A DNA stretch of 64,000 nt. It comes from Candidatus Omnitrophota bacterium (GTDB lineage: Bacteria > Omnitrophota > Gorgyraeia > DTHP01). Of the stretch, positions 146 through 62,039 are shown piece after piece. Where the stretch lies: contig JAMWCW010000001.1 in the NCBI GenBank assembly GCA_023819145.1, positions 66,400-130,399 on the forward strand. The letters run 5' to 3'. Every line of letters begins with the position of its first letter. Position 1 is the first letter of the stretch. The notes below the pieces were generated by a model. The model was not told where the DNA came from and made no database searches. It saw only the letters and a list, made by a program, of their open reading frames with translations. The position numbers were made by a program, and so were the translations under genes.

Positions 146-174
146 TTGACGATAGCCGATAATTGTGGTATCTT
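146..174 (+). promoter_or_regulatory. sigma70-type promoter ccTTGACG-N17-TATCTT upstream of the 287 gene
   Basis: TTGACG at 146-151, a 17-nt spacer ending in TGg, TATCTT at 169-174. Confidence 0.4.
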
Positions 175-286
175 TAAAGAGGAAGCAATTGCAAGAATAA
201 AAATCTTGAATTGTTTTGTAAAAGTATACCCTGTTTGGGCGATTTTAAGCCGGTTATAAAATCTTTTTCTTAAAAATGGCTTAGCG

Positions 287-1210
287 GTGATGAAATTTAG
301 AAGAATGAAAATGGGGCTTGTTTTATATTTTGCTGTGGTATGGTCTTTTCTATCCGGTAGCTATCTTATCTTACCTCAAAAGAGCCAAATTATCTACGAT
401 AGGCTAAGTGCACGTAGAGTAAAAAGTGACTCTCGTTCAGATTACAATCTTACTTATTGTGCTCCTCAGTATTTTATTGATGGGATTAAAGAATTTATCC
501 CACCCTCTTATTACCCTATTGCTTGGCGGTTATATGAACATTTACGAACAGGTTATAGGGGGGAGCTGCTTTCTTCCGATTTAAGAACTGCATTTATCCA
601 ACTATTTAAGTATCATGGTATTAGGTCAATATTAGATTTGGGTTGTGGGAGGGGTAATTTTTTGTTTATGCTTCAACCTCTCGCTAAGGAAGCGGGGATA
701 GAACTGGTTGGTGTAGATTTAGAATTATCTCAAGATGTTAAAGAGAAAATGAGCAGGCTTGGTATTGAATTTTACGAGGGCGATTCCGAGGATTTAAGCG
801 AATTGGTGGGCAGGAGAAAATTTGACATTATTGTTGCGGCAGGAGTATTGGGGCAAGCTCAAATTTCTCTTTCTAAAGAAAATCTATCGCAGGCCCAAAA
901 GCAAAGCACGCATATTGCTCTTGCGGCAGTAGATGCATTAAGTAGTAATCCTTACGCAGTGTTTATTACCGCTTCAATATTCTCTTTTTTGTTTTTAGAA
1001 CGCAGTAAATTGGAAGAGATGGGTATTAGAATCGTTTATTGGAATAATGAAGAGATGAGGGTGAGAGAAGAGACGAGCTGGGATTCCATAGATGACCGCA
1101 TACGTGTTTGGTATGGGGAGAGATATTACGGGGAAGATTGTCCAAGTATTGGATTCTACAACCTATGGAACCAAAGCGCCAATGTTGCGGTTATGCAAAA
1201 ACGAAGATAG
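287..1210 (+). CDS. class I SAM-dependent methyltransferase with the N-terminal hydrophobic leader and RR motif
   Basis: Motif I is ILDLGCGRGNF, followed by VGVDLE. The start is GTG 287 or ATG 290. The leader reads GLVLYFAVVWSFLSGSYLIL, then SARRVKS with RR at nt 413-418. Confidence 0.7.
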   Translation: MMKFRRMKMGLVLYFAVVWSFLSGSYLILPQKSQIIYDRLSARRVKSDSRSDYNLTYCAPQYFIDGIKEFIPPSYYPIAWRLYEHLRTGYRGELLSSDLRTAFIQLFKYHGIRSILDLGCGRGNFLFMLQPLAKEAGIELVGVDLELSQDVKEKMSRLGIEFYEGDSEDLSELVGRRKFDIIVAAGVLGQAQISLSKENLSQAQKQSTHIALAAVDALSSNPYAVFITASIFSFLFLERSKLEEMGIRIVYWNNEEMRVREETSWDSIDDRIRVWYGERYYGEDCPSIGFYNLWNQSANVAVMQKRR

Positions 1211-1361
1211 AATCTAAAGGGAATTATTCTCTAAAAAAACATCTTAAATAGATTATGGCGTAGTTGCAGGGTTTTACTTAAAAAAAGTCTTCCCGACTAA
1301 CTGAGTTGTTGATAGTTCGTCTTTCTTAATTTTTGTTAAGATTAGAGGGGGGATTCTAACT

Positions 1362-2210
1362 TTATTTTTTGCCACGCTCGGCAAGGATTTTATCCCAGAC
1401 CTCTCTTTGATATTGAGTGAAAAGTTCGTAAAGTCTTGACTCTAAAACTTTTCTTTCCCCTTCTTCGCTCCATAGTCTATAACTTTCCGAACAGAGCTTA
1501 AAAGCAATCATTAAAAGCTCATATTTATAACCTAATACTTCTCTTAAACGCTGCTCCTCTTTTTTTAGAGATTCTTCTAATTTTTCGTAGTCAATATTTA
1601 TCGCTTCATAATCAATTAAATAACCATCCTCGCCGGTTTTAGGATTATAATTTTCTCCTTCAATCCAGTGTTTACCTACGCGTCCATCATCTGCTTGTAC
1701 TGTATCCCGCGTATAGTCTATACCCCAGCTTTTGAGCTTAGGTAAAAACGGGGGGAGGGGCCTATATTTTTCTGCTTCTCCTGTCCAGGGATTCTGTACC
1801 CATCCGGAAGGAGGAGAGTCTTCCCTTCCTTCTGCATATTGATAGATATAGCAACCATCTTGGTAAAGGGTAAGAATATAAGGGACGTTTCTTGCTGGCA
1901 CTTCTCCCGTTAAGAACCAGTATTCATTCAAAAGAGCGCAAATAAGATGAATTTTATCTCCCCCTTTTGACTTGGCAATTAACAATAAAGGAGGACTAAA
2001 TTTTACTCCTTTAAGTTCTTCTATCTCAATAAAATCAACCTGCCCAACGCGCCAATTATTTGCTGCTTCGCGTATTTCTTCGGTGGTGATAAACGAGGGA
2101 TGAGTTTTTATTCTGCGTAGAGAAGAATAAGAGAGAGGTTCTATAAAGATAAAAAGAGCGTTAAATAATAGACTAAGCAAAGATAAGAGTAATAAAATTC
2201 TTGTTCTCAT
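1362..2210 (-). CDS. hypothetical protein with the leader and RR motif
   Basis: I chose ATG 2210 because the track start at 2276 lies inside the divergent promoter. The N-terminus is MRTRILLLLSLLSLLFNALFIFIEPLSYSSLRRIKTHP, with RR at nt 2112-2117. I recognise no domain. Confidence 0.6.
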   Translation of the reverse strand: MRTRILLLLSLLSLLFNALFIFIEPLSYSSLRRIKTHPSFITTEEIREAANNWRVGQVDFIEIEELKGVKFSPPLLLIAKSKGGDKIHLICALLNEYWFLTGEVPARNVPYILTLYQDGCYIYQYAEGREDSPPSGWVQNPWTGEAEKYRPLPPFLPKLKSWGIDYTRDTVQADDGRVGKHWIEGENYNPKTGEDGYLIDYEAINIDYEKLEESLKKEEQRLREVLGYKYELLMIAFKLCSESYRLWSEEGERKVLESRLYELFTQYQREVWDKILAERGKK

Positions 2211-2226
2211 TTTTCTTCCCTGAGAA

Positions 2227-2255
2227 AATATAACACCTAATTTACCTAGCGTCAA
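2227..2255 (-). promoter_or_regulatory. minus-strand promoter cccTTGACG-N17-TATATT for the 1362-2210 gene
   Basis: The reverse complement of 2227-2258 reads cccTTGACGctaggtaaattaggtgtTATATT. The -35 is the complement of 2250-2255 and the -10 is the complement of 2227-2232. Confidence 0.5.
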
Positions 2256-2262
2256 GGGACAC

Positions 2263-2291
2263 TTGACGATTTGCAAAAAGCGTGTTATATT
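2263..2291 (+). promoter_or_regulatory. promoter TTGACG-N17-TATATT for the PGK gene (copy A of a duplicated cassette)
   Basis: TTGACG at 2263-2268 and TATATT at 2286-2291. The 29 nt at 2262-2290 are identical to 3915-3943. Confidence 0.6.
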
Positions 2292-2399
2292 TTAAACGAA
2301 ACTAAAATTCCTTTATCTAAGGATGCGGTAACTAATCTTTCCTTTAAGCTTAAATTTAGAACCCCTATAATTAAATACATAAAGAAGGTGTTTATACAA

Positions 2400-3785
2400 A
2401 TGTTATTGGTGAGGTTATTTTTGCTATTTGTTTTTGGTTTAGATGTATTATTTAATTTTTCTTCTTATTTATCTTGCCATAATTTTCTCTACGCATTACG
2501 CAGAAGTAAGCAAAGTAATATTTTTAGCTTAGGAATTGGTTCAAAGAAGACTATCGATGATTTGGGAGATATTTATGGCAAGGTTGTTTTAGTGAGGGTA
2601 GATTTTAATGTGCCTATTAAAGATGGACTTGTTTTAGACACCTATCGCTTAGAAAGAGCAAAAGAGACAATAGAAAATTTAACTAAGCGTGGTGCGAAGG
2701 TAGTTTTGATGTTTCATTTAGGCCGACCCAAAGGAAAGATTGTTCAAGAATATAGGATAGAACCGGTAATTGCTAAGTTTAGTGAAATGTTAGGCAAAGA
2801 GATTAAAATAGGTCCAGATGCCGTAGTAGGTGATGAATTAAGGGAGTTGGTTAGCAAGATGAATCCGGGGGAGGTAATTTCTTTACAGAATTTGCGTTTT
2901 CATTCCGGAGAAGAAAAACAAGATGAAGCCTTTGCGGAGGCAATTCTTAATTACACGAGGGCAGAGATTTACGTAAATGATGGGTCTGCCAATATGCACG
3001 GTAGCGACCAAGTGTCTGAAACTATCTTACCTCTCTTAATGCAGAGAAGAGGGCTTCCGACGGTTTTAGGAAAATTGGTGGTAGAAGAGTTTGGAATTCT
3101 GGAAAATTTTGTTAAGGGTGGTATAGATTTAGCCTTGTTTGGCGGTTCAAAATTTGAAAAGATTGAATCTATAAAGAATTTAGTGTCTAGTGGAAGAGTA
3201 AAAACTGTTTTTCTCTCGGGAGCAATGGCACACTTGTTCCTTAAAGCCAAAGGATTTGAATTAGGAAAGTCTAAAATTGACACAGAACTCGTGAGTGAAG
3301 CAGAAGAGATACTTGCTTTAGCCGAAAAGCGTGGCGTACGCATTGTGCTTCCTGTGGATGTGCGTTTAGATGATGGAAGTTTATTAGTTATTGCTGATAA
3401 AAAAGGAAATAAAATTGCTGATATACCGCCAGAAAGAGCCATTTGGGATATTGGAATTATTACTTTAAAAATGCTCAAAGACATGATGGAGATGATTCCT
3501 TCTTCAGGAAGAATAATTAGTAACGGCACCGCAGGATGGTTAGAAAAAGGTTTTCCTTTTGACTGGGGAACAAATGATATAAATAGAATGTTGATAAATC
3601 ATCCTGCAGAAAAATTAATTTTAGGAGGAGAAGGAGCTTTTGCTGCTTTGAATATGTTGGCTGAATATCAGGGAACACCTGAGCAGTTTAATATGACCAT
3701 TCTTACTGCAGGAGGAGCAGCACTTGCTTATCTAGCAGAAAGAGCGGATGAGCTTACGCCTTTTAATTATATTGATACGAAGTGA
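2400..3785 (+). CDS. pgk: phosphoglycerate kinase homologue with the leader and RR motif
   Basis: PGK motifs are VLVRVDFNVP and FHLGRPKG. The C-terminal motifs are divergent (LGGEGAFAA, LTAGGAALAYL). I chose ATG 2400, preceded by gaaggtg, because the track TTG 2271 lies inside the promoter. The leader is MLLVRLFLLFVFGLDVLFNF...YALRRSKQ. Confidence 0.8.
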   Translation: MLLVRLFLLFVFGLDVLFNFSSYLSCHNFLYALRRSKQSNIFSLGIGSKKTIDDLGDIYGKVVLVRVDFNVPIKDGLVLDTYRLERAKETIENLTKRGAKVVLMFHLGRPKGKIVQEYRIEPVIAKFSEMLGKEIKIGPDAVVGDELRELVSKMNPGEVISLQNLRFHSGEEKQDEAFAEAILNYTRAEIYVNDGSANMHGSDQVSETILPLLMQRRGLPTVLGKLVVEEFGILENFVKGGIDLALFGGSKFEKIESIKNLVSSGRVKTVFLSGAMAHLFLKAKGFELGKSKIDTELVSEAEEILALAEKRGVRIVLPVDVRLDDGSLLVIADKKGNKIADIPPERAIWDIGIITLKMLKDMMEMIPSSGRIISNGTAGWLEKGFPFDWGTNDINRMLINHPAEKLILGGEGAFAALNMLAEYQGTPEQFNMTILTAGGAALAYLAERADELTPFNYIDTK

Positions 3786-3793
3786 TAATGAGT

Positions 3794-3895
3794 CGTAATC
3801 CGTAAACCGTAATCGGTAATTTGTAATAAAAAATAACGAACTCAACGAAATAACCAACTAAACGAAAATAACGAAATTAACGAACACAACGAACA
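3794..3895. repeat. intergenic stuttered word array: 5 copies of NGTAAT, then about 7 copies of AACGAA
   Basis: The sequence reads cgtaat ccgtaa accgtaat cggtaat ttgtaat, then ataacgaac tcaacgaaa taaacgaaa ataacgaaa ttaacgaac acaacgaac. Confidence 0.6.
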
Positions 3896-3915
3896 AAATA
3901 TCATCAACGCAGCCC

Positions 3916-3944
3916 TTGACGATTTGCAAAAAGCGTGTTATATC
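3916..3944 (+). promoter_or_regulatory. promoter cccTTGACG-N17-TATATC (copy B), probable promoter of the 4188-18471 operon
   Basis: TTGACG at 3916-3921 and TATATC at 3939-3944. It is identical to copy A over 29 nt. Confidence 0.6.
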
Positions 3945-4187
3945 TTAATGTAGAAGAGAGGTACTTTATAAAACTTAAATTTCAATATCATAAATTAACT
4001 TTCTAGAATAAAAAGATGAGAGATTTTAATTATTTCTTTCTATTGGAAAGTGAAAAAATAGTTTCTCATTCTAAAGGGTATCAAGCCCTGATTAAAGCAT
4101 TGGAGCATGGTTTTGAAGGATTAGACAAGGAAATAGCCAAGAGGTTAATAAATTCCTATTTATATTTAAATGAAAGGAGGGAATGTA

Positions 4188-6611
4188 ATGAAAGGTTCTA
4201 AAATAAAATTTTTCTTAGTTTCTTTTTTGGTGCTTTCTTTTAGTTTTGGTTTTTCTTTTTCCGGTGATTCTTCTTTTTTATTGAGAAGACTCAGAAGTGT
4301 TCCTGTAGGTTATTTACCATCTTCAGGGATAGAAGTGGTAGATGCATTAGATGGTATGGTGAAGGTAGAGATGATTTTGCCTCAAACTTTTGAAGAGAAT
4401 CCGGCGTTAGTTCCGACATTATCGGCTTTTTTTCGTGCTTTAAGCTATAACCGCGATATAGAAATCTCAGCGATTGTATCTCCTGTTTCTGCGGAAGAGT
4501 TGGCTAGAGCCATTCAGTCAAATTATGCGTTAGGTCCGTGGAGAGGGGTTAATGTAAGTGCTGAAGGAAACACCTTAATTATAAGAGGAATGGATACAGA
4601 GGTAAGAATACCTGTTTCTACAAGTTCTACAAGATCCACCGGCGGAGCCGATGTTTCTATCTGTCTAGGAGATGTCTCCCGTGCTCCTTCGATTCTTTCC
4701 GGGAAAAGAGCGCTTTATTTTCCTGTAGGAAGCATAACAACGCAAGAAGGAATAACTGCTTTACCTGGTTCTATTGGAGAATGGGATAGTGCGGTGGTTA
4801 ATGTTTCGGAACTTACAGGTTTAGCAATAGCTTTACAAGCTCTGAGAGAAGAATTAGGAGGTTTTGGGATGGTGGGTAGAATAGATGTATTTTGTCCGGA
4901 AGGGGATATGACTATTGTGCCTTCGGCAAAAGAAGCCGATGTTTCTGATTACCTTTCTTCTTTAGGGATAACCTCCCCGGGAATGAGAGTAACTCTTCAT
5001 ACCACAAAAATATCCGGAGATATCAAAGGAGCAAGACTGGTAGGAATAGTAATTACTTTTCCCAGTAAAGTTACCAAAGAAGATTTAATAAAAATATTTG
5101 AAGCGCATCCTTTATTAGGAGTTGCTCCTGAAAAAGATTCTACTTCGGCAATGTTTACCAACCCCTATGAGACAAAACTTTTTTATCTCAATACCGGTAA
5201 GACTGTGGTAGACGAGCTAAAAGATGGTTCTACCATGATAACTCTGCGTGGTTGGGTAGGGGATTATTCTTACGCAGGAATGATGATTTCTGCCATCACT
5301 GAGGTGGGACAGCGTTTGTCGGAGTTAGGTATTCTTTCTACCCAGAAGGCAAGTGTAATCTATCCGGCAGTAGAGCATCCTAAAGTTCAAGTTCTTGCTC
5401 AACCGAAGAGAGTTATGGTCAATGGGGGAGGAGGGAGAATTGGAGTAAATATTTTGAGAAGTCTTATCGGAGATCCTAATTTTGATGTGGTGGCGGTTAA
5501 CGGAGTGCGTAGTGCCGAAGCCTTGCGTCAGGGATTACTTTATGACGAAATACTAGGTCCTACGCGGGCGGTAATAGAAACCGGCAAGCAGAAGTTATTG
5601 GACGGGAGAGAGATAGAGTTTGTGACTATAAATGGCCATAAAATATATGTGTTTAATGCCCGTGAAGATGAAGAAGTGCGTCAACTTCCGTTAGGTGATT
5701 TGGGGATTGAGTATGTTTTAGAAGCAAGTGGCAATTATACTCAAACAAAGGATTTTGAACCTTTCTTTCAAGCAGGAGCTAAATATGGCTTTATCAGCGC
5801 TCCCGCAAAAGATAAAACTACTCCAGAGATTGTTCCCGGTGTAAATCCTGAAACTTTTGTAGCGATGGCAAGAGAAGGACTATCTCAAGTGGTTTCTTTT
5901 GGTTCATGTACTACAAATAATGCTGCTCCTGCCATAAGAGCAGTGCTTGATCTTTTAGAAGCAAGAGGATTGCAAGTAGAAGAGCAATTAGAAAAAGTCA
6001 CTTTAGAGACAGTTCATGCAGTAACCCAGACCCAAGCACATCTTTTACCAATTCAAATCAGAGACCCAAATAAAGAGCCTGAGAGAGCAAGAGCAGGAGC
6101 ACTTAATATTGTAGTTTCTAGTACTGGTGCAGCTAAAGTTATTCCTAAAATCATTGAAGAAATTGACAAAATGGAGGGAATAGCTTTGCGCGTGGGCAAT
6201 CCTAATGGTTCGGAATCGCAGATTTCTTTCTATTTAGATGGTAAATCGCCCGTGACCAAGGAAGAAATAGTTGCTTATTTACAAGAAAGAGCGAGAACTG
6301 ACCTCTTTAATATTTTAAGAGTAAATACTGGAGAAAAATTAGATTCCCTAGCGATAAACGGTTCAGATATTACTTCCATTGTGGAAGCTTCAACGGTGAA
6401 AGTTACTCCTCGTTATAATGATAAAGGAGAATATGTTGGCGATATGATCGTGCTTAATACTTGGTATGATAACGAATGGAGTTATACTCAACAGTACTTA
6501 AGGGGAATTATTATGTTTACCCTATTACTGGAGAACCCTGGTTTAACCCCCGAAGAACTCTTGGTGCGTAGTGACAGATTGGGTGTACATGCCTATGCTC
6601 CTATCCCATAG
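4188..6611 (+). CDS. gap: GAPDH-like protein: leader with RR motif, an N-terminal module of about 400 aa (possibly a degenerate GAPDH catalytic-domain copy), then an intact GAPDH
   Basis: The RBS aggaggg precedes ATG 4188. The C-terminal half has NGGGGRIGVNILR (Rossmann), SCTTNNAAPA (catalytic Cys) and WYDNEWSYTQ. The leader is FFLVSFLVLSFSFGFSFSGDSSFLLRRLRS. Confidence 0.8.
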   Translation: MKGSKIKFFLVSFLVLSFSFGFSFSGDSSFLLRRLRSVPVGYLPSSGIEVVDALDGMVKVEMILPQTFEENPALVPTLSAFFRALSYNRDIEISAIVSPVSAEELARAIQSNYALGPWRGVNVSAEGNTLIIRGMDTEVRIPVSTSSTRSTGGADVSICLGDVSRAPSILSGKRALYFPVGSITTQEGITALPGSIGEWDSAVVNVSELTGLAIALQALREELGGFGMVGRIDVFCPEGDMTIVPSAKEADVSDYLSSLGITSPGMRVTLHTTKISGDIKGARLVGIVITFPSKVTKEDLIKIFEAHPLLGVAPEKDSTSAMFTNPYETKLFYLNTGKTVVDELKDGSTMITLRGWVGDYSYAGMMISAITEVGQRLSELGILSTQKASVIYPAVEHPKVQVLAQPKRVMVNGGGGRIGVNILRSLIGDPNFDVVAVNGVRSAEALRQGLLYDEILGPTRAVIETGKQKLLDGREIEFVTINGHKIYVFNAREDEEVRQLPLGDLGIEYVLEASGNYTQTKDFEPFFQAGAKYGFISAPAKDKTTPEIVPGVNPETFVAMAREGLSQVVSFGSCTTNNAAPAIRAVLDLLEARGLQVEEQLEKVTLETVHAVTQTQAHLLPIQIRDPNKEPERARAGALNIVVSSTGAAKVIPKIIEEIDKMEGIALRVGNPNGSESQISFYLDGKSPVTKEEIVAYLQERARTDLFNILRVNTGEKLDSLAINGSDITSIVEASTVKVTPRYNDKGEYVGDMIVLNTWYDNEWSYTQQYLRGIIMFTLLLENPGLTPEELLVRSDRLGVHAYAPIP

Positions 6612-6644
6612 AAAATAAGATTTATTCTCGCAAAAGGAGGAATT

Positions 6645-8798
6645 ATGCGGATAAGCAATTTAGTAAGAGTTATTTTTATTTTCTTTTCTGTTCAATTTTC
6701 TCTCTTTTCTGGTGAACTCCGGAATGGAGTAATCTTAATTTCTCGTCGGGCTAAGAATCAAGAATTTTTAATAGTGTCTCCCTTTCAAAAATTACTCTCT
6801 CTTTTAGGAAACGGATTACAAACTGGTCTTAACTTTGATGAAGGGATAGAACTTTTTCGCCAGATAGAGAGATTGCGCTTGTCTGTGGAGGAAACAGAAG
6901 ATTTTTATTCTTTTATAGCGAATAATCTTGTTGATTTTTTGGTAGTTTCAGAAAGGTCAGGAATTAGAATTGACCTTCTTGATATTCGCGACCTTTTCTC
7001 GGCAGCACAGAACTATGCTTTGGGGATAAGAAGAGATGAGTTGGGATTAAATAGGGGAGGAAGGGCTCTTTTAAATAAGATGTTAAGTGTTAAAGATATA
7101 AAAATCATTGGTGAACAGCTTTTAGAAGCACTTGACTCCTCTTTTAACAATGGCAGGATTGATAAAGCTAATTACCTGAAATATAGAGAGCGTCTTGAAA
7201 TTATTACTCTGATGGCTGGACTCTGGGCAACTTCACCAGTGAGTTCTAAGAGTATGCTTAGAGCTTTAGAAGGAGGAAATACCGCCATTATGGCCGCAAA
7301 TACCCAGATGTCGGTAAGTATTCCCGGACTTATGCTTGCTTCTTTAGAATTTGGAGCTCCCCTTATGTTTGAATCGGCAATGAGTGAAGTCAACCTGCAA
7401 GACCCAAATGACCCTGCGAAAATAGCTATTGGTTATATCGGTAGAAATCCCCAGGAATTTGCGGAAGTAGTAAGATACTATGCCTTTCTTTTAGGTTACG
7501 ACCTGCCTTATGCCATTCATGCTGACCACACCACAGTAAGTAAAGATACAGCGGAGGCAATTGACTATGCTAAAAGACTTAATCAAGCACAATTATCTGC
7601 AGGATATACCTCTTTTGCTATTGATCCTTCATCTCTTCCCGCAGTGAGAGAAGATACCCAGTTAAAAACGCTCAATGCCATGGAGGTGGAAGAGTTCTTG
7701 AGGCTTGGTTTTGATGAAAGTTTAGCAAAAACTTTAGCCGCGCGAGAATTTAAAAAATTAAAAGAACTCTCTTCTATTGAAGGAATAGACGAGAGAAAGA
7801 TCAATATTCTGATGGACTATATTGAGTCACAGATTCTAGTTGCAGTTTTGAATAAAATGGGGTATGAAGATTTGATGAGCATTCCACGTATGCCTGGAAC
7901 TATTGCCCGTGCCATTGTAGAGAACGGTCCGTTTACTTCCTTGGAAGAGCTAAAAGAAATTGATGGGCTGGGTGATGATGATATTTTCTATATTGAGGGA
8001 ATAGACAATGCGGTTCTTTTGTTTGATTATTTAAAGGCTTACTTAGATTTAAAGCGGATTATTGAGATAAATATAGAATTAGCAAAATTTATTCCTGAAG
8101 AGTTTGGTTTAGAGGTGGAAGTTGGTCATATTGGAAGAGTTGATCCACTGACGGGAGAGGCGGTGATGACTACTCCTTTAGAAGCGGTAGTTTTGATTGA
8201 AGCATTACAAAGATTTGGGATAAAACCACAGCTTTTGGCGGTAAATAATGGAACAAAACACGGAATTGTCTTCATTGGGGGTAAAGAGGTTCCTACGACT
8301 GTAGATGTAAAAAGAACCGATGAAATAGCGAGCGCTATAAGACCTTTAGGAGTTTCCCTTGCTCAGCACGGAACTACTGGTACGCCTTTTGAGGTTATAA
8401 AAGATCAACTTGCGGGAAATATCCTTAAAGCCAATGTAGGAACCGAGTGGCGGAGAACTGTTTTAAGAAGCATGCCTTTGGATTTATTCTATAGAATGGT
8501 AGAGTGGACAGTGGAAGAAGAAAAAAGGAAAGCTCCAGAGAAATTTTCTGGACTTCTTCCGGTAAGAAGTTATACACGTGAACAACTGCTAAGTTCAGAG
8601 TGTCCTTACTATGCTTTAATTATTGATCCTATAAAACGGGCAATAGGAGTTTTTAGAGCTGAAATTGATAATATTTCTGGTGAGGATTTGGATTTAATTG
8701 TAGAAACAACCCGCGAAGTAGCAAGAGAGTATTTTACTGCTTTTAATGCTCTAGAGAAAGTTTGGAAGATTGTAAAGTATTTGGGTTGGGGATGGTGA
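6645..8798 (+). CDS. fba: class II fructose/ketose-bisphosphate aldolase-like protein with the leader, the RR motif and an inserted helix-hairpin-helix module
   Basis: The RBS is aggagg. Aldolase motifs are IHADHTT, GYTSFAIDPSSLP, VEVGHIG, NNGTKHG and QHGTTGTP. The insert near aa 345-455 has LKELSSIEGIDERK and LEELKEIDGLGDDD. The leader ends ILISRRAKN. Confidence 0.7.
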   Translation: MRISNLVRVIFIFFSVQFSLFSGELRNGVILISRRAKNQEFLIVSPFQKLLSLLGNGLQTGLNFDEGIELFRQIERLRLSVEETEDFYSFIANNLVDFLVVSERSGIRIDLLDIRDLFSAAQNYALGIRRDELGLNRGGRALLNKMLSVKDIKIIGEQLLEALDSSFNNGRIDKANYLKYRERLEIITLMAGLWATSPVSSKSMLRALEGGNTAIMAANTQMSVSIPGLMLASLEFGAPLMFESAMSEVNLQDPNDPAKIAIGYIGRNPQEFAEVVRYYAFLLGYDLPYAIHADHTTVSKDTAEAIDYAKRLNQAQLSAGYTSFAIDPSSLPAVREDTQLKTLNAMEVEEFLRLGFDESLAKTLAAREFKKLKELSSIEGIDERKINILMDYIESQILVAVLNKMGYEDLMSIPRMPGTIARAIVENGPFTSLEELKEIDGLGDDDIFYIEGIDNAVLLFDYLKAYLDLKRIIEINIELAKFIPEEFGLEVEVGHIGRVDPLTGEAVMTTPLEAVVLIEALQRFGIKPQLLAVNNGTKHGIVFIGGKEVPTTVDVKRTDEIASAIRPLGVSLAQHGTTGTPFEVIKDQLAGNILKANVGTEWRRTVLRSMPLDLFYRMVEWTVEEEKRKAPEKFSGLLPVRSYTREQLLSSECPYYALIIDPIKRAIGVFRAEIDNISGEDLDLIVETTREVAREYFTAFNALEKVWKIVKYLGWGW

Positions 8799-8868
8799 GA
8801 TCTTATAATTCTTCTTAGTAATTGAAGTTGTCTAAAAATTATTTGCTACTAAAGGAGGGATTGTAGAG

Positions 8869-10407
8869 ATGAGAAAAATATTTTTAGTTCTTTCTTTTTG
8901 TTTATTGTTTTTTCTATTTTGTCCTTTAAATTATAATTCTCAAGAATATTTTTCTTTCCGTAGAATTCATCGTAATCTTTTAATCACTGACCCACAACTT
9001 TTAGATGAGGCATATTTGTTGAATATCCTCCATATTGGGGGTGGATTGGGTTCCATTGTAGTCGATGCTCGTAGCGGAGAGCATATTGCGAGATTGAGTA
9101 TCTCTGGGAAAAGAATTATTAGTCGTGATGGTTTTAGCGTGCAGGATATTTTAAAAGGGATAGAAGAAGGGCGATTCGTTACTGTTACTCATCAAGAATT
9201 AGTTCAGAGGGCTCTTGAACATAGAGAGAATTGTGTGCTTGTCTTTACAGGTGGTGGAGATTCTGCGGGTATAAATGCAGTAATCAGTTCTGCAGTCCAA
9301 GGATTAAAGAAATTGAAACCAGAAATGACTGTTTTGGGTTTAAGAAACGCAGGAGCCAGTCTGGTGGTTTCTCCGGAAGAATTTCCCGAACATCTTGTTC
9401 TGATAGATGAATTATACGCTGAAGATGTTGCGGAACAGGGCAGTACTTTTTTGGGCTCTTCAAGGTATAATCCTTTTAAGAAAGCAGAAGATATGGCAAA
9501 GACTCTGGAAAACATAAAGGGTTTTGGAGCGTGGATTTCTACAGGAGGAGATGATAATCTTAAGGTTGCCCAGAGATTATCCCAGGAAAATCCGGAAATG
9601 GTGGTTTTGGCTACTGCCAAAACCATCGATGGTGATGTGATGGTTAATGGAAGAGGAGTGCAATGTTTGGGATTTGATTCAGCAGCGAAGATGTATCGGG
9701 ACGAAATTTATTCTATTGCCCAGAGTGCCAAAGCTCATGGAGAGAAAGAACAACCGCTGGTAATTGTGGTTGAGGTGTTTGGAAGGGATTCCGGAAGGTT
9801 GGCTTTTGAATCGGCGCGCCCCGATGACTTTTCCGGATTGAATGCGGAGGAAATTCGGAGACAAGTTGACCTTGCAGGAACGATAATGATCGTTGTTCCT
9901 GAGGAGAAACATGCTGACGGGACTCAAGCGACCATTGATGAATTAGTAAAAAGGGCAGAGGAAATTATTGCCCGCGAAAATGCAGTGGTAATAGTTGTTG
10001 CTGAAGGTTATCGGCCAGGAGATATGCCGGATATTGTAAAAACTTCTTCTAAAACAGATGCCTACGGACACGTTCAACTTGCCGGCATTGGTTCCGCGCT
10101 TGTTCCGGTTTTAGAAAAAAGAATTCCTAAAGCAAAAGTAAGAACCTCTCTTCTTAACTATGAAGGAAGGGGAACGCTTCCCAGCGAATACGATGTTACA
10201 TTGGGTTATAAGATTGGTTGGGAAATGGCTGAACTAATAGCCCAAGGAGTGACGGGTGGAAGGTTTGTAGGATATTTCAATGAAATGGATGCCCGTTTTG
10301 AACTGCCGGTGGTGCTGGAATTGGTGAATATCTCTAACCAGAATACCTTAGAGCTTTATCCCCGTCAAATATTAGAGAGGAATAGGGTTTTGGTGCTTGA
10401 TAGGTAA
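8869..10407 (+). CDS. pfk: phosphofructokinase, PPi-type by sequence determinants, with the leader and RR motif
   Basis: The RBS is aggaggg. Motifs are FTGGGDSAGINAVI, TGGDDN (Asp at the position equivalent to E. coli 104) and AKTIDGD (Lys at the position equivalent to 124). The leader is IFLVLSFCLLFFLFCPL...FSFRRIHR. Confidence 0.8.
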   Translation: MRKIFLVLSFCLLFFLFCPLNYNSQEYFSFRRIHRNLLITDPQLLDEAYLLNILHIGGGLGSIVVDARSGEHIARLSISGKRIISRDGFSVQDILKGIEEGRFVTVTHQELVQRALEHRENCVLVFTGGGDSAGINAVISSAVQGLKKLKPEMTVLGLRNAGASLVVSPEEFPEHLVLIDELYAEDVAEQGSTFLGSSRYNPFKKAEDMAKTLENIKGFGAWISTGGDDNLKVAQRLSQENPEMVVLATAKTIDGDVMVNGRGVQCLGFDSAAKMYRDEIYSIAQSAKAHGEKEQPLVIVVEVFGRDSGRLAFESARPDDFSGLNAEEIRRQVDLAGTIMIVVPEEKHADGTQATIDELVKRAEEIIARENAVVIVVAEGYRPGDMPDIVKTSSKTDAYGHVQLAGIGSALVPVLEKRIPKAKVRTSLLNYEGRGTLPSEYDVTLGYKIGWEMAELIAQGVTGGRFVGYFNEMDARFELPVVLELVNISNQNTLELYPRQILERNRVLVLDR

Positions 10408-10461
10408 AGAGATAACTTATTTTATTTGGCATTTTTAAAACAAATAGGTTTCTGAGTATTT

Positions 10462-11253
10462 GTGCGATATTTAATAATAAGAAAAATAGTAATTATTTTA
10501 TTTTTTTTGGCTCTTTCTCAGACAATAGTATTTTCTCCGGTGTATGCTCGCAGAGTGAAGTGGTTTGGGGGTGAGTTATCACTTCTTCAAGAAAATAATT
10601 TTTTTGTAGGGCTGGAAGATAGTTTGAAAGAGTTTGTTATTAAATTCGAGGATGCCAGAGTAATAAAATCTATCTCTCAGCCAGAGCCATTAGAAGGGGA
10701 TGCCCCTTTTGATTCCGGAGAAAAGATAGTTACCTATAAAATTGAGGTTTTGACAGATAAAGGGGTTAGCAGTTTAGTAGTGAAATTGGTAAGTAGCAGA
10801 GAAGCAAAAAATTTCTTAACTGCTTCTTTAAGGGGTGTTTCTCCAGGTCCAGCGATTTTTGTAGAACAGGGGTGGGAGAACAGAAATGGCGTTAGCGAAG
10901 GTTATTTAATCTATCGGTTCTTTGAAGGAGTGAAGTTAAGCGAAATTTGTAATCAGGAACAGGCAATTGATATCCTAAAGAATAATCTTTGGATTATTGA
11001 AGAATTAGGTATTAAACTTGCGAATTTAAAGAAAGCAGGGGTAAAATATAGAGATTTTTTATATTATAATACGCTTATTGATTTAGAAAAGAGAGCTCTT
11101 GTGATTGTTGATTACGGTGATAGGCATTGCGCTGATCCCTTTATTCAGGTAAGAGATTGGTGGTTGCCTTTGATGTTCAATACTGAACCCGAGATATTAG
11201 AGAAAGTTATTAGTTTATTTGTAGAAGTTTATCAGAGAGAATTAAATAATTAA
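10462..11253 (+). CDS. protein-kinase-like fold protein (RIO/Kdo/APH-like) with the leader and RR motif
   Basis: YRDFLYYNTLI resembles the HRD..N catalytic loop and IVDYGD resembles DFG. The start is GTG with a weak RBS. The leader is IVIILFFLALSQTIVFSPVYARRVKW. Confidence 0.45.
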   Translation: MRYLIIRKIVIILFFLALSQTIVFSPVYARRVKWFGGELSLLQENNFFVGLEDSLKEFVIKFEDARVIKSISQPEPLEGDAPFDSGEKIVTYKIEVLTDKGVSSLVVKLVSSREAKNFLTASLRGVSPGPAIFVEQGWENRNGVSEGYLIYRFFEGVKLSEICNQEQAIDILKNNLWIIEELGIKLANLKKAGVKYRDFLYYNTLIDLEKRALVIVDYGDRHCADPFIQVRDWWLPLMFNTEPEILEKVISLFVEVYQRELNN

Positions 11254-11325
11254 TGAGATTTGCTACTCTTAAAGAAATTATCTTGCGGCGAGAAATGATC
11301 ACAATTTTAAGGGGGAGGAAGTGAT

Positions 11326-13551: not shown

Positions 13552-13608
13552 ATTTTTTTGTAATATTTATATCTCCCTTTGGTTATAGATAATAGGGGGG
13601 CGAGAAAG

Positions 13609-14769
13609 ATGAAGAAATACTTAAGAATTAGAGGGATATTTATTTTAGTAGTATTTGTAGTATTTTTATTTACGCTTTTGATTCCTGTAAAACATTCCTT
13701 GGCTTATCCCAGGAGTTATCCTTATTTAGTTTCTAATTCATTACCAGCTTTTTCCGCGCGAGGGTTTAATGAAGCGCTCTTAGCGCGAGTTTTGCGCGAG
13801 ATTATCATTATCTATAAATTCTTGGCTCAAATCGAAAGGGTTCTTAATGAAAGAGGAGAAAATGATTTTCCATCTTTAGGTAGGGTCATCGGAGACAGAC
13901 CTCAGGAGAGAGAAAATTCCCAAAATACTCCCCCCAAAAGAAGTAATTTAAGGGAAGAACCTGCGGGTAACCGTCATCTAGACCCAGAAAATCCTTCGGC
14001 AAAACTACCAGAAGGGTCATCTTCGTCACCTGCTGGTTCTCTAGGAAAGATAAAGATTGCGATTATTGATATTGACTCTAAGCACGCCGCAGAAGTAAAG
14101 GCGGTAATGGAAGAGACAATTCGGCGTAAGAATCCCGGGGCAAAAGTAGAAATTCGTACCATTATTCTTCCTGGCAAATGGCAAAGGGATGGTTCTAAAG
14201 CGGTGGCTACCAGTGATATTTTAGACGCTTTTGCAGAAGCCAAAGCTTGGGGCGCAAAGGTAATCAATATGAGTATTGGTGCACAAGGAGGTGTAGACGG
14301 TATAGTGCTTAGTGCCTTACGCGACCTTTCTGAAAGTGGCATTCTGGTAGTAGCGGCATCAGGTAATGAAGGTAGTTATGATGCTTGGGGGCAAGCTGGC
14401 CGATATGTCTTATCAGTGGGGGTAAGAGGTGCACCTTATTCCAATACCGCTGATTTATATGTCGATTGGGGAGAGCTTCCACCTGGATTAGAAGGCACAT
14501 CTTTTGCTGCTCCGATTATTGCTGCGGAAGCGGCTTTAGCCTGGTTAGAAAACCCTTCCCTTAACTTGGCAAGTTTGCCTTCTCAATTAGGTTCACGGGA
14601 CACAGTTTATGCCCGGAGTAATCCTCCGCAAAGAAGTTCGCAGGGGTTTCACACTTCGGCAATAGAGTTTGTAAGGCCACCTGTTGTTTTTTATACGCCG
14701 GTGGAAGAAATGCCTTTTTACGAACAGAGTTTTTATTCGCCTGTTGGCTGTTTTCCGTCTTTTTGGTAA
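13609..14769 (+). CDS. membrane-anchored S8 subtilisin-like serine peptidase
   Basis: Motifs are IAIIDID (Asp), SKHAAEV (putative His), VINMSIG, VVAASGNEGS (oxyanion Asn) and GTSFAAPIIAAE (Ser). The N-terminal helix is IFILVVFVVFLFTLLI. AYPRSY occupies the position where neighbouring genes have RR. Confidence 0.7.
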   Translation: MKKYLRIRGIFILVVFVVFLFTLLIPVKHSLAYPRSYPYLVSNSLPAFSARGFNEALLARVLREIIIIYKFLAQIERVLNERGENDFPSLGRVIGDRPQERENSQNTPPKRSNLREEPAGNRHLDPENPSAKLPEGSSSSPAGSLGKIKIAIIDIDSKHAAEVKAVMEETIRRKNPGAKVEIRTIILPGKWQRDGSKAVATSDILDAFAEAKAWGAKVINMSIGAQGGVDGIVLSALRDLSESGILVVAASGNEGSYDAWGQAGRYVLSVGVRGAPYSNTADLYVDWGELPPGLEGTSFAAPIIAAEAALAWLENPSLNLASLPSQLGSRDTVYARSNPPQRSSQGFHTSAIEFVRPPVVFYTPVEEMPFYEQSFYSPVGCFPSFW

Positions 14770-14876
14770 TTTTTGTTTGTTTTCTTCTAAATAAAGGGGA
14801 CACTTACTACCGACTCTTCATTGGTTGTAAGAAAGTAAAAGATATTAAACTTGAATTCCGAGGAGGTATTATATAA

Positions 14877-16064: not shown

Positions 16065-16083
16065 AAAAAGGGGGAGATAAATA

Positions 16084-18471: not shown

Positions 18472-18480
18472 CCGGGAAAA

Positions 18481-18580
18481 ACCGACCCCACCTCGTAGGT
18501 GTCCTTTTCACTGTATTGTAAGTTGTTTTTATATGGATACTTATGTGGGACGATTTTGGCCACCTACGAGGTGGGCACGG
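18481..18580. repeat. REP-like inverted-repeat pair 1
   Basis: ACCGACCCCACCTCGTAGGTGTCC at 18481-18504 faces GGCCACCTACGAGGTGGGCACGG at 18558-18580. The cores are exact reverse complements (CCACCTCGTAGGTG and CACCTACGAGGTGG). Confidence 0.75.
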
Positions 18581-18948: not shown

Positions 18949-18977
18949 TTGACGATAAGAGAAAGATGTGATATAAT
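18949..18977 (+). promoter_or_regulatory. promoter TTGACG-N17-TATAAT upstream of the 1378-aa gene
   Basis: TTGACG at 18949-18954, a 17-nt spacer ending in tgtga, TATAAT at 18972-18977. Confidence 0.55.
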
Positions 18978-29443: not shown

Positions 29444-29474
29444 GTTAAACAAAAGTAATTAACCCCAAACCCCT

Positions 29475-29500: not shown

Positions 29501-29501
29501 C

Positions 29502-29530
29502 TTGACATAAGCTTATAAATTTGCTATATT
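29502..29530 (+). promoter_or_regulatory. promoter TTGACA-N17-TATATT for the transposase gene, located between the two REPs of pair 2
   Basis: TTGACA at 29502-29507 and TATATT at 29525-29530. Confidence 0.55.
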
Positions 29531-30276: not shown

Positions 30277-30280
30277 ACCT

Positions 30281-31838: not shown

Positions 31839-31867
31839 TTGACAAAAGTTCTTAATTATGATAAGGT
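31839..31867 (+). promoter_or_regulatory. possible promoter TTGACA-N17-TAAGGT with TGa extended -10, for the efflux operon
   Basis: TTGACA at 31839-31844. The track's TTG start codon is the -35 element. Confidence 0.3.
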
Positions 31868-43700: not shown

Positions 43701-43728
43701 TTGACAAATATAGAAATTTCAAGATAAT
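43701..43728 (+). promoter_or_regulatory. promoter TTGACA-N16-GATAAT upstream of the MscS gene
   Basis: TTGACA at 43701-43706 and GATAAT at 43723-43728. Confidence 0.5.
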
Positions 43729-49152: not shown

Positions 49153-49180
49153 TTGACATATACATAAAATTATTGATAAT
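49153..49180 (+). promoter_or_regulatory. promoter TTGACA-N16-GATAAT
   Basis: TTGACA at 49153-49158 and GATAAT at 49175-49180. Confidence 0.5.
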
Positions 49181-54625: not shown

Positions 54626-54654
54626 TTGACAAAAACAATTGAATAAAATAAAAT
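54626..54654 (+). promoter_or_regulatory. promoter TTGACA-N17-TAAAAT
   Basis: TTGACA at 54626-54631 and TAAAAT at 54649-54654. Confidence 0.45.
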
Positions 54655-55969: not shown

Positions 55970-55987
55970 AAAAGAGGAGGTGGGAAA

Positions 55988-57190: not shown

Positions 57191-57230
57191 ATTCTAAAAG
57201 AATAAAGACACATAGAGAAGAAACAAAAGA

Positions 57231-57425
57231 ATGGAATGTACCCAAAAGAAAAATTTGGATTTTTGCACTTGCACTTACGAACCCTGTCCTCGTAAAGGCA
57301 AGTGCTGTGAATGTATAATCTATCATCGAAACAAGGGGCAACTTCCCGGATGTCTTTTCCCACCCCAGGCAGAGAAATCTTACGACCGTTCTCTGAAAGC
57401 ATTCATCTCTGCGTTTAAGAAATAG
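57231..57425 (+). CDS. small Cys-rich protein, 64 aa
   Basis: The Cys pattern is C-x8-CxC-x4-C-x5-CCxC...C (MECTQKKNLDFCTCTYEPCPRKGKCCECIIYH). The RBS is weak. Confidence 0.45.
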   Translation: MECTQKKNLDFCTCTYEPCPRKGKCCECIIYHRNKGQLPGCLFPPQAEKSYDRSLKAFISAFKK

Positions 57426-57434
57426 AGGGGAATT

Positions 57435-58897: not shown

Positions 58898-58899
58898 TT

Positions 58900-60069
58900 A
58901 TGAAATTTAATAAGCCTCTTACGCGCAGAAACTTCATAAAAAAAACCTGCCTCTTTTGCTTAAGTTTGGGGTTTTCCGGTCTCATAAAGTCTCTCCTCAA
59001 AGAAAAATTTGTCTTTGGAGATATCCTGCTTCGTCAGGGAATGCGGGAGGCAATGTTTTATGATGTTATAGATACGGAGACGGTGCAGTGTCATTTATGT
59101 CCACGTAATTGCACATTGACAAACGGTCAGCGCAGTTTCTGTCGTGTAAGGGAACCCGAGAAGGGTAAACTTTATAGTTTAGTTTATGGGCTTGCTTGTG
59201 CGGTGCATGTTGACCCGATAGAGAAAAAACCCATATTTCATATGCTTCCCGGAACGAGTTCCTTTTCTATAGCTACGGTAGGTTGCAATCTCCGTTGTAA
59301 GTTCTGTCAGAACTGGACAATTTCGCAGGTTAAGCCAGAGGAAGTTGACTACCTATATTTACCGCCACTGGAGGTTATTAAAATGGCTGAGGAAAAAAAA
59401 TGTGCATCCATTGCCTATACTTATACAGAACCAACTATCTTCTATGAGTATATGCTTGATACCGCAAAACTCGCTAAAGAAAAAAATATAAAAAATATTT
59501 ATGTCACCGCTGGCTATATTAATCCCCAGCCCGCAAGACTTTTAGCTAAATATATTGATGCGGCAAACATTGACCTTAAGGCATATGATGATGAGTATCT
59601 CCAAAATATCTGTGCCCAGAGACTCGAGCCTCTTCTTGAAGCAATAAAGTTGTTTAAGGATTTAGGAGGCTGGGTAGAGATTACTAACTTAATTCTTCCC
59701 ACATTGAATGACAAAATGGAAAAAATTCGCCAAATGTGCTACTGGATAAAGAAGAATTTAGGTGCGGATACCCCTATACATTTTTCAAGATTTTCTCCAA
59801 TGTATAAGATGGTTCATTTACCTTCTACACCAGTTTCTACCTTGGAGGAGGCAAGAAGGGTAGCCATGGAGGTTGGGCTTAACTATGTTTATATCGGAAA
59901 TGCTCCCGGACATCCCGGAGAACATACCTACTGTCCGGGATGTAAAAAAATACTTATCGAAAGAAAAGGATTTTTTCTAACCCAATATAATTTAAATAAA
60001 AATAGATGTAAATATTGCAAGTGCGAGATTGCCGGAATCTGGCCTGAAAAATATTCTTTAGTTGATTAG
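58900..60069 (+). CDS. amrS: AmmeMemoRadiSam system radical SAM enzyme with a Tat-type N-terminus
   Basis: Motifs are CHLCPRNCTLTNGQRSFCRVR, DPIEKKPIFH and GCNLRCKFCQNW. The N-terminus is LTRRNFIKKTCLFCLSLGFSG. Confidence 0.8.
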   Translation: MKFNKPLTRRNFIKKTCLFCLSLGFSGLIKSLLKEKFVFGDILLRQGMREAMFYDVIDTETVQCHLCPRNCTLTNGQRSFCRVREPEKGKLYSLVYGLACAVHVDPIEKKPIFHMLPGTSSFSIATVGCNLRCKFCQNWTISQVKPEEVDYLYLPPLEVIKMAEEKKCASIAYTYTEPTIFYEYMLDTAKLAKEKNIKNIYVTAGYINPQPARLLAKYIDAANIDLKAYDDEYLQNICAQRLEPLLEAIKLFKDLGGWVEITNLILPTLNDKMEKIRQMCYWIKKNLGADTPIHFSRFSPMYKMVHLPSTPVSTLEEARRVAMEVGLNYVYIGNAPGHPGEHTYCPGCKKILIERKGFFLTQYNLNKNRCKYCKCEIAGIWPEKYSLVD

Positions 60070-60080
60070 AGGTTCATCCC

Positions 60081-60109
60081 TTGACGCTCTCCTAAGAATA
60101 TGCTATCTT
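60081..60109 (+). promoter_or_regulatory. promoter cccTTGACG-N17-TATCTT for the 60162 gene
   Basis: TTGACG at 60081-60086 and TATCTT at 60104-60109. Confidence 0.5.
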
Positions 60110-60161
60110 TTATATTAGAGAGATTAAATTACTTTTTAAATTAAAATAAAAAGGTGTTTTT

Positions 60162-61886
60162 ATGATGAATAAGAAAAAATTATGTATCACAATTGTATTT
60201 TTAACTTTATTCTTATCAGCTGGAGATATCTGTTTTGCCCGTCGAATACCCTCATATTTTAGTCTTTCGCAAATTCTTAACGCGGCGTATGTTCGAGGAT
60301 ATCTTACCCCAGAAGAGATAACTGCCCTGTATCGAAGATCTTCCGGAAAGGCAGATTTAACAGATATGCAAGGTGAGGTCAAACTTGCCATCTTACTTGA
60401 TGGGAGGTCTCTTCCTGTCAGGGTTTATGGCGGATATATCGATGTGGGACAAGACAGATTCGTTATTCAGATTAAAGGGGAAGAAGAAACAGGTTTATAT
60501 AATGAAATTATTTTCCAAGAAGGAAATGCAGGAAAACCTTTTGTTATAAATCTAAGGACCGGCGGGACCATCAGCATGGAAGAGAAAGACGAAAAAAGAG
60601 GAACAGCAAGAGATGGGCTTAAATCAGAATTACCATATATCCAGGTTGGTTCTACGAGGTGGGATTCCAGCCAGATTGGCGGAGAAGAACTGCTTACCTT
60701 AGTAAATTGTGTTTCACGGGTATTGGATTTAGGTATGGTTCCTTTGATTACGCATGGGACTGATACGATGGAGATCACCGCATTTATTCTCAGTCTTTTG
60801 TTTCCTAATAGATTTATGGTTATGACCGGTGCTTTTGATGCTGCCAACACTCCCGGAGGAGACGCTCCTATTAATTTTAGGTCTTCCCAGCAATTAGCCG
60901 AAAGTGGTAATGTTCCAGCACATCTCTATGTAGTGATGAACAATAAAATTCATTTGGGCTCACGGCTGGTGAAAGTAGGGACGTCTAAAGAATATGGATT
61001 TTTAAGTTATGGTGGCCATATTGGAGAAATAGATGAAAACGGTGTGATTCGGTTTAATAACTCTTTTCTGGTTGAAGAAAAGAGTTTTTCCTCCACTATA
61101 CTTGACCCCACAAAATACGGAATTTCTGATACGGTGTTATTTTATAGTAACGCTTACTTACCACTTATTGCTATCAAGACACTAACCACACAATTAATCA
61201 CCAAAAAGGAATCTGGTGGAAGACCGGGTTTAGTTATAGAAGGAAGTCTCCCCCCAGGAAGCGAACCTTTCTTGGATATGCTTTTTCAGAGAGGTATTCC
61301 CGTATTTGTAGAGGATGTTAATCAGGAAATTACAGGCGTTTTTAAAATCCCCGATTGGCTTAGTCCTTTGCAGGCTTGGGCAAAACTCAGTTTATTGCTC
61401 AATCAATTTGAGAACGAGGTGATACCAGATTTAATGCTTTTAGATATAGCTGGAGAAAAGGTTTATCACGATTATCTGTGGATAAAAAAGGCAGAAGAAG
61501 TGTCTCGACCTTACAGTGAAAGGATTCCTCGTCAGAAAATCAGCGGAAATTTCTATTCTAATGCAGGGAGAGCAGTGAGTTTTGTTTTGACCTTTCCTGG
61601 CTCAATGTCAAAAGCAGTTTTGAAATCAGAGATAGATAGACTTTTGGCAACACCTGCCCAAGAAAAGATTCTTGTAATTGAAGGCGCAGGAAATGGTAAT
61701 GTTGACTTGCAGTTAAACGATTTGCTAAGCTTTGCGCTGAATAAAGGTATTAAAGTTGTAGTAATTGCCCGTCCAGTTACAGGCAGAGCAGATCTAAGCT
61801 ATGATGTAGCACTTAAATTAGATTCCCGCTGTATACATGCGGATGGTTTGGGTAGGGACTATTTGTTGAGCTTACTTGAGCCATAG
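60162..61886 (+). CDS. L-asparaginase/glutaminase-fold protein with extra C-terminal asparaginase-C-like modules, the leader and the RR motif
   Basis: Motifs are TGGTIS, LITHGTDTME, MVMTGAFD and later VIEGAGNGNV...GIKVVVIARPVTGRAD. The leader is LCITIVFLTLFLSAGDICFARRIPS, with RR at nt 60240-60245. Confidence 0.65.
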   Translation: MMNKKKLCITIVFLTLFLSAGDICFARRIPSYFSLSQILNAAYVRGYLTPEEITALYRRSSGKADLTDMQGEVKLAILLDGRSLPVRVYGGYIDVGQDRFVIQIKGEEETGLYNEIIFQEGNAGKPFVINLRTGGTISMEEKDEKRGTARDGLKSELPYIQVGSTRWDSSQIGGEELLTLVNCVSRVLDLGMVPLITHGTDTMEITAFILSLLFPNRFMVMTGAFDAANTPGGDAPINFRSSQQLAESGNVPAHLYVVMNNKIHLGSRLVKVGTSKEYGFLSYGGHIGEIDENGVIRFNNSFLVEEKSFSSTILDPTKYGISDTVLFYSNAYLPLIAIKTLTTQLITKKESGGRPGLVIEGSLPPGSEPFLDMLFQRGIPVFVEDVNQEITGVFKIPDWLSPLQAWAKLSLLLNQFENEVIPDLMLLDIAGEKVYHDYLWIKKAEEVSRPYSERIPRQKISGNFYSNAGRAVSFVLTFPGSMSKAVLKSEIDRLLATPAQEKILVIEGAGNGNVDLQLNDLLSFALNKGIKVVVIARPVTGRADLSYDVALKLDSRCIHADGLGRDYLLSLLEP

Positions 61887-62010
61887 GGAATTAAAATCCT
61901 TCTAATTACTTTTTCATTGCTTATTATCCCACGGAGTGAACCTCTGATTCTTTTCTAGATTTTAGATAAATTTGTACGGAATTAGTAGAGAACTATTAAA
62001 TTTAATTTCC

Positions 62011-62039
62011 TTGACAAGCAGTCAGATAAGTTCTAAAAT
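62011..62039 (+). promoter_or_regulatory. promoter TTGACA-N17-TAAAAT
   Basis: TTGACA at 62011-62016 and TAAAAT at 62034-62039. Confidence 0.45.

Follow-up and report, generated by a model that had tools for sequence, protein, structure and literature searches.

Compilations of Escherichia coli promoters show that, within the -35 hexamer TTGACA, conservation is lowest at the final base. An extended -10 element can carry information comparable to that of the -35 element (PMC1807945). The closest described counterparts of the promoters analysed here are extended -10 promoters of the primary sigma factor, which carry TGn or, as the '-16 region' of Gram-positive bacteria, TRTG. We studied twelve promoters in a 64 kb stretch of contig JAMWCW010000001.1 of a Candidatus Omnitrophota bacterium (the window, meaning the whole stretch of DNA that was analysed). 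Six of these have TTGACG as their -35 hexamer (G-type) and six have TTGACA (A-type). They share every testable feature with the extended -10 promoters of the primary sigma factor, and their function is predicted from sequence and conservation. The initial annotation of the window had reported that the hexamer follows gene class, with TTGACG preceding genes of a family with an N-terminal leader and an arginine pair (RR) and TTGACA preceding all other genes. It had proposed either a dedicated sigma factor or activator, or common descent of a promoter-plus-leader cassette, as the cause. A literature search returned no report that deals with promoters of Omnitrophota or with glycolytic enzymes that carry a leader.

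We consider it probable that the twelve sites are ordinary promoters of the primary sigma factor (sigma-70/sigma-A type) and that the split between them stems from copied promoters, the base state of this lineage, composition and small numbers. The window has a guanine-plus-cytosine (GC) content of 38% and a strong positive GC skew, and almost every gene lies on the plus strand. All twelve hexamers, six TTGACG and six TTGACA, were confirmed at the positions that the initial annotation had assigned to them. The list, compiled by eye, proved effectively complete: an exhaustive TTGAC-N scan and a consensus promoter scan of the window revealed no further intergenic promoter that is close to the consensus and shares its orientation with a gene. 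The -35 hexamer matches TTGACA at five or more of its six positions in 12/12 sites. The spacer is 17 nucleotides (nt) long in ten promoters and 16 nt in two, with 17 nt in all six G-type and in four of the six A-type promoters. The -10 boxes match TATAAT at four to six positions, except for the box at 31839 (TAAGGT, 3/6). Both groups are alike in their C-TTGAC core, their spacer of 16-17 nt and a -10 box of the pattern TAnnnT, which is imperfect at 31839 and at 3916 (TATATC, final T absent). Every promoter is intergenic and co-oriented, and the start of its -35 element lies 45-144 nt upstream of the first start codon. Loose matches to the consensus were as common as in shuffled sequence (observed versus shuffled: 53 vs 47.7, 44 vs 47.5, 69 vs 52 and 15 vs 10.5) and were therefore given no weight, which was placed on high-scoring intergenic sites instead. 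No TTGAC[AG] promoter was found in the intergenic stretches 23139-23395, 30277-30418 and 57191-57434; the last of these contains a small DUF6485 gene. Scans of the window with Rfam and for tRNAs gave no matches, and thus no riboswitch or known leader RNA lies behind these promoters.

Readings as sigma-32, extracytoplasmic function (ECF) or sigma-54 promoters were rejected on the -10 sequence and the spacing. Sigma-32 (RpoH) has a -35 consensus of CCCTTGAA, a -10 element of CCCCATnT and a spacing of 13-15 nt. The run of C directly in front of TTGA in 4/6 G-type promoters, which reads CCCTTGAC in three cases, is reminiscent of this -35 element, but these promoters lack both the CCCCATnT box and the 13-15 nt spacing and have instead a spacing of 17 nt and a TATATT-like -10 box. 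When the open reading frames (ORFs) of the 64 kb window were searched for a sigma-70-family domain, none was found, and the only regulator was a ROK/NagC-like protein at 55988.

Comparison with orthologous promoters breaks the split. Loci of relatives (L numbers below) were retrieved through a clade-specific extension of GAPDH and through the leader gene 1362-2210, which encodes a protein without assigned function, and a metagenome scan with the N-terminal extension of GAPDH gave 7 loci. The comparison set comprises about 119 kb from about a dozen distinct Omnitrophota genomes, or 183 kb with the window included, and the closest relative is L001 (71% GAPDH identity). Cross-genome conservation covers four of the twelve promoters, namely those of gap, pgk, 1362-2210 and the Fe-S gene. 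At these orthologous regions the promoter elements are conserved, namely in the gap/pgk family (14 promoters), at 1362-2210 (5 lineages) and at the Fe-S gene (L124 18023).

The promoter of gap, of pgk and of the operon that begins with a small ORF is clearly homologous across the clade (alignment A2, 14 promoters from 12 genomes). Within this glycolytic family C-36 and TTGAC are invariant, and position 6 is the sole variable base of the hexamer. Little or no variation was seen at several spacer positions, at the TG, at the beginning of the -10 box and in a CTTTAT box further downstream. G occupies position 6 in 6/14 promoters (pgk and gap of the window, pgk and the small-ORF operon of L136, L138 and L140) and A in the other eight (L001, L139, L124, L126, L128, L132, L133 and L135). 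Since the closest relative, L001, has A, this position changed at least twice. The bases in front of the -35 element vary in the family too, as TTC, TAC and ATC also occur. Among other leader genes, L136 12683 uses CCC-TTGACA, and a weaker -35 of TTGTAA, missed by the scans, was read by eye at L142 ~7249. L136, L139 and L140 have an extra conserved consensus TTGACA promoter 5' of the G-type glycolytic one. It reads GC-TTGACA-A(A/G)nTTTTTAAATTAnAT-TA(C/G/T)AAT and is located at L136 ~9947(-), L139 ~219(-) and L140 4482(+). In L136 and L139 this extra promoter is back-to-back with that of the 1362-2210 homologue; in the window, the pgk copy of the gap promoter sits where the relatives have the extra promoter.

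These data do not support the proposal that a dedicated sigma factor or activator recognises the G, as the core is shared and homologous promoters of leader genes have A in eight of fourteen cases. The G that would define the class is not conserved across the orthologues of the supposed regulon, being present in 6/14 glycolytic promoters, though in 5/5 at 1362-2210. Taken together, the same architecture in both groups and the G/A variability at homologues argue against a dedicated sigma factor.

The second proposal, a promoter-plus-leader cassette spread by descent, holds for the pgk and gap promoters; it failed for the other pairs of G promoters and for the leader-coding DNA. A stretch of 34 nt is 97% identical between the regions of 2263 and 3916 (E = 1e-12) and lies inside a 55-nt repeat at 80%, and from -35 to -10 the two promoters are identical (28/28). 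They are copies of each other, so that their G is shared by descent. For the other pairs of G-type promoters, blastn-short revealed no DNA similarity beyond the consensus elements and short matches at chance level; the otherwise unrelated promoters 2255 and 60081 have a 12-nt string, TCCCTTGACGCT, in common. The same search, applied to the 5' parts of all 13 genes with a leader or a signal peptide, gave no significant match in coding regions. Common descent is thus demonstrated for the pgk and gap promoters only.

We then considered the split itself. The claimed partition of six against six holds for five of the six G promoters, whose products combine a signal peptide with an RR motif (SARRVK, SLRRIK, ALRRSK, LLRRLR and FARRIP). 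It is loose for the sixth, the YD gene behind 18949, which has KVRTQVI without RR. The chance of 1 in 924 given for the exact labelling is arithmetically correct, with a Fisher p of 0.0022. As 2263 and 3916 are copies, the assumption of independence behind this test fails; when 2263 was dropped as a duplicate of 3916 and the YD gene was moved to the non-leader genes, p became 0.015. The further features ascribed to most G promoters were confirmed, with CC directly upstream in 4/6, AT following in 4/6 and GTG/TGT before the -10 box in 5/6. The TGn of an extended -10 (TG at -15/-14, mostly as TRTG) is present in 6/6 G-type versus 2/6 A-type promoters. The GC content of the spacer is 36% in the G-type versus 21% in the A-type promoters (p = 0.04), and three A-type promoters have the T-tract TTTTTTC directly upstream. 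The window therefore contains two kinds of promoter that differ in more than a single base. A regional difference in GC content was rejected as a cause, as it is uniform at 35-42% along the window. We also dismissed an ACA...TGT symmetry in A-type promoters as evidence of an operator, because the consensus of the -35 and that of the extended -10 mirror each other.

In our estimate it is highly improbable that twelve unrelated promoters show the split by chance alone. The idea was picked after the data had been seen, the sixth position of the -35 is in general weakly constrained, and 34 of the 924 labellings (3.7%) produce a perfectly splitting column somewhere among 74 aligned columns. All of this would favour chance, but two of the promoters are demonstrably related, and several positions as well as overall GC content co-vary with gene class.

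Several observations weigh against the view that these are ordinary primary-sigma promoters whose split has no class-specific cause. The labelling by gene class is the most extreme of all 924 for summed column differences, also when the duplicates are left out, and further positions discriminate between the groups (T at -28, 6/0; C at -38, 5/0). The promoter of 1362-2210 keeps TTGACG in 5/5 lineages despite a diverged spacer (alignment A3). Within the 183 kb, no intergenic TTGACG precedes a non-leader gene, a count that includes only four non-leader promoters in relatives. These four have TTGACA at the L001 cold-shock gene, the L124 Fe-S gene and an L132 secreted protein gene, and TTGACT at L001 5980. 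Counted across lineages, leader genes have 12 G and 9 A versus 0 G and 10 non-G for other genes (p = 0.004), a value that overstates the association, because of orthology and because the loci were retrieved through leader genes. In addition, the comparison with relatives covers three of the six G promoters (2255, 2263 and 3916). For the leader-bearing asparaginase behind 60081, no orthologue above 30% identity was present in the protein database, and contig L141, which was fetched for the asparaginase, has a high GC content and is apparently not from a relative of this clade.

These observations bear on the alternative that the leader-family genes form a true regulon. Its mark would be a flavour of C-rich -38 to -36, G at -30, T at -28 and TRTG, read by a sigma-70 paralogue or by a factor at the flank of the -35, with the G frequent and dispensable. 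The global difference between the groups in the window and the extreme rank of the gene-class labelling are in favour of it, as are the 12-nt string shared by 2255 and 60081 and the retention of G at 1362-2210. Moreover, throughout the 183 kb G-type promoters precede only leader genes or leader operons. On the other hand, the -35 core, the spacing and the -10 are identical to those of the other group, and in the glycolytic homologues the sixth position is mostly A and the upstream CC is variable. A consensus TTGACA promoter also precedes the leader operons of L136, L139 and L140, and CCC-TTGACA was found before a non-leader gene, namely at L124 18023, the orthologue of the Fe-S promoter 62011 of the window, which has TTGACA too. 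No gene of the window codes for a candidate factor, and the non-leader promoters sampled in relatives number only about four. On balance we regard such a regulon as rather unlikely. The stronger version would place the RR-leader genes, including a near-complete glycolytic set, on a dedicated promoter subclass served by a specialised sigma-70 paralogue or -35-proximal factor, with the A-type homologues having decayed or come under alternative regulation. This we find quite improbable; if it were true, a targeting signal and a transcription signal would mark the same functional module.

In the reading as ordinary primary-sigma promoters, which we consider probable, C-TTGAC-N, a spacer of 16-17 nt and TAnnnT would be read by the primary holoenzyme, with the G-type promoters adding the extended -10 TGn. 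Judging from the shared elements, one holoenzyme probably reads both groups, and the G would have no class-specific role. The sixth base of the -35, which varies between G and A among homologous promoters of related genomes, would be weakly constrained. Four causes would then combine to give the split. The first is shared descent, the pgk promoter being a copy of that of gap and the 1362-2210 promoter being its conserved back-to-back neighbour. A second would be the state of the lineage, with G here in a glycolytic family where most relatives have A. Local composition would be the third, the promoters of leader genes being GC-richer and the others very AT-rich with T-tracts. Finally, small numbers would contribute, with 146, 18949 and 60081 as singletons.

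The glycolytic promoters allow another explanation of their G. At 2263, 3916 and their homologues, it could be held by the operator of a transcription factor that overlaps the core promoter, to which a dimeric repressor or activator would bind, and not by sigma. The spacer ATTTnnnnAAAGCGTGT is the same in the window, L136, L138 and L140, though the proteins are only 45-70% identical, and the spacer of the neighbouring 1362-2210 promoter, in contrast, has diverged. By eye, an imperfect palindrome ACGATTT-N4-AAAGCGT extends from -32 to -15, and its left arm includes the G at -30. A palindromic box, CTTTATAAAG, is conserved in the 5' untranslated region (UTR) of the gap operon. In the window it lies behind the gap promoter at 3964..3973 (+) as CTTTATAAA(A/G), a candidate operator, and is one of just 4 near-matches in 64 kb. 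The UTR box is thus rare in the window, and its CTTTAT is kept with little or no change throughout the glycolytic alignment, except in L136_pgk (CCGCG). In the distant gap promoters of L124, L126, L128, L132, L133 and L135 the spacer holds a copy of the box as well, 42-43 bp upstream of that in the UTR, which places the two on the same helical face. The boxes in spacer and UTR thus resemble a pair of operator sites and may be candidates for one.

CggR represses the gapA operon of Bacillus subtilis. The gap operon of the window is similar to this system in having a small non-enzymatic first gene and conserved repeated or palindromic boxes that overlap the core promoter. It differs in that CTTTATAAAG is unlike the CggR operator and the small ORF is far smaller than CggR and without a Pfam family. 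This conserved ORF (4016..4201, +; 61 amino acids, aa) follows the gap promoter as its first gene and runs into the start of the GAPDH gene at 4188. L001, L136, L138 and L140 have homologues of 53-87 aa at the equivalent place, with the motif E..F..LD in common; searches with Pfam and NCBIfam gave no family match for the ORF. Two short tandem arrays immediately precede the gap promoter, CGTAATC x3.9 at 3794-3820 and ATAACGAAC x7 at 3831-3898. The arms of the palindrome are short, AT-rich and read by eye, L001 and L139 lost the G with no symmetric change in the other arm, and the small ORF has no known fold or family. An operator would also say nothing about 146, 2255, 18949 and 60081, all of which are without the mirrored CGT. 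We consider that an operator holding the G is unlikely.

The G-type promoters of the window are arranged as follows. The first (146..174, +) consists of CC-TTGACG, a 17 nt spacer and TG-G-TATCTT and is located 5' of a leader-bearing methyltransferase gene (287/290-1210; leader SARRVK). The second (2227..2255, -; CCC-TTGACG, 17 nt spacer, TG-T-TATATT) lies 45 nt 5' of the leader gene 1362-2210 on the minus strand. It is back-to-back with the third (2263..2291, +; inverted repeat I8), the promoter of the leader-bearing pgk (2400-3785; PGK domain) and a copy of the gap promoter (repeat D3). The gap promoter itself (3916..3944, +) has CCC-TTGACG, the spacer ATTTGCAAAAAGCGTGT and TATATC and precedes the small ORF and the gap-fba-pfk-...-ppdk operon (4016-18471). 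At 18949..18977 (+), CCA-TTGACG is followed by a 17 nt spacer and TG-A-TATAAT, a match to the consensus of 11/12, in front of the gene for a signal-peptide protein of 1378 aa. The last G-type promoter (60081..60109, +; CCC-TTGACG, 17 nt spacer, TG-C-TATCTT) precedes the leader-bearing asparaginase gene 60162-61886.

All A-type promoters are on the plus strand. At 29502..29530, TTTTTTC-TTGACA with a 17 nt spacer and TATATT is located 5' of a RayT-like Y1 transposase gene (29623-30276), and its -35 element directly abuts a hairpin of the repetitive extragenic palindromic (REP) type with a T-run. Such REP-like hairpins (core CCACCTACGAGGTGG) occur as inverted pairs at 18471-18596, 29467-29573 and 30285-30388 and flank this RayT-type gene. 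A scan of genome contigs with the REP pattern CACCTACGAGGTGGGNNCGG gave chance matches only, in high-GC genomes. The promoter at 31839..31867 (TTTTTTC-TTGACA, 17 nt spacer, TAAGGT) precedes the TolC-like gene of an RND efflux operon. The two promoters with a 16 nt spacer both have GATAAT as -10 box; one (43701..43728, TTGACA) is located 5' of an MscS gene and the other (49153..49180, TTTTTC-TTGACA) 5' of the gene of a peptidoglycan-binding lipoprotein. The remaining two have a 17 nt spacer and TAAAAT, and precede the genes of a solute-binding protein (54626..54654, TTGACA) and of a 4Fe-4S protein (62011..62039, TCC-TTGACA).

The leader of the leader-family products consists of a positive n-region, a hydrophobic core of 15-20 aa, a linker of 5-20 aa and an invariant RR at residue 26-42, followed by [VIASTL][KHQR]. 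This pattern held in 30 of the 32 N-termini checked, which came from the window (287-18471 and 60162-61886) and from L001, L124, L126, L128, L136, L140 and L142. Its carriers in the window are PGK, GAPDH, FBP aldolase, PFK, both halves of PPDK, an aminotransferase, the asparaginase, the methyltransferase and two proteins without assigned function, and across the clade also FBPase, a glycosyltransferase and a leucine-rich repeat protein. When leader peptides were searched against Pfam and NCBIfam, no model covered the leader. The GAPDH-like protein (4188-6611, 807 aa) has 100% identity to the NCBI protein with locus tag NC818_00220, from the metagenome-assembled genome of a Candidatus Omnitrophica bacterium. 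Its GAPDH domains are preceded by an N-terminal extension of ~390 aa (4188-5360) without a Pfam match, which occurs in no more than 9 database proteins, apparently all of this clade. The FBP aldolase and the aminotransferase have similar extensions of ~400 aa.

The RR leader differs from a twin-arginine signal in its order, as the arginine pair follows the hydrophobic core. A classical twin-arginine signal, with TRRNFIKK before the hydrophobic core, is present in the radical-SAM protein 58900-60069. Within the operon of leader genes, an S8 subtilase (13609-14769) has a signal peptide and no RR motif, and 16 kb from it a fervidolysin-prodomain-like protein is encoded at 30419-30838. This subtilase may be a candidate for a protease that processes RR leaders at the dibasic site. 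Two secreted proteins (19002-23138, 1378 aa; 23396-29443, 2015 aa) had no significant Pfam match. The smaller of these has internal repeats of ~40 nt in its gene (family D1) and a duplicated KVRTQVI / RVRTQVI near its N-terminus.

Were the split truly to mark a gene class, a regulon of unusually targeted enzymes of central metabolism in an uncultured phylum could be traced cheaply by sequence, and the split would also point to an unrecognised specificity of a sigma factor or activator at the least informative position of the -35. Our analysis instead calls for caution, as a perfect split of six against six among a dozen promoters can come from duplication, the base states of a lineage and local composition. 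The analysis also gave two useful by-products. One is the conserved glycolytic cassette of promoter, small ORF and palindromic box. The other is the RR-leader family: the presence of this clade-specific leader on normally cytoplasmic enzymes is probably the most interesting feature of the window.

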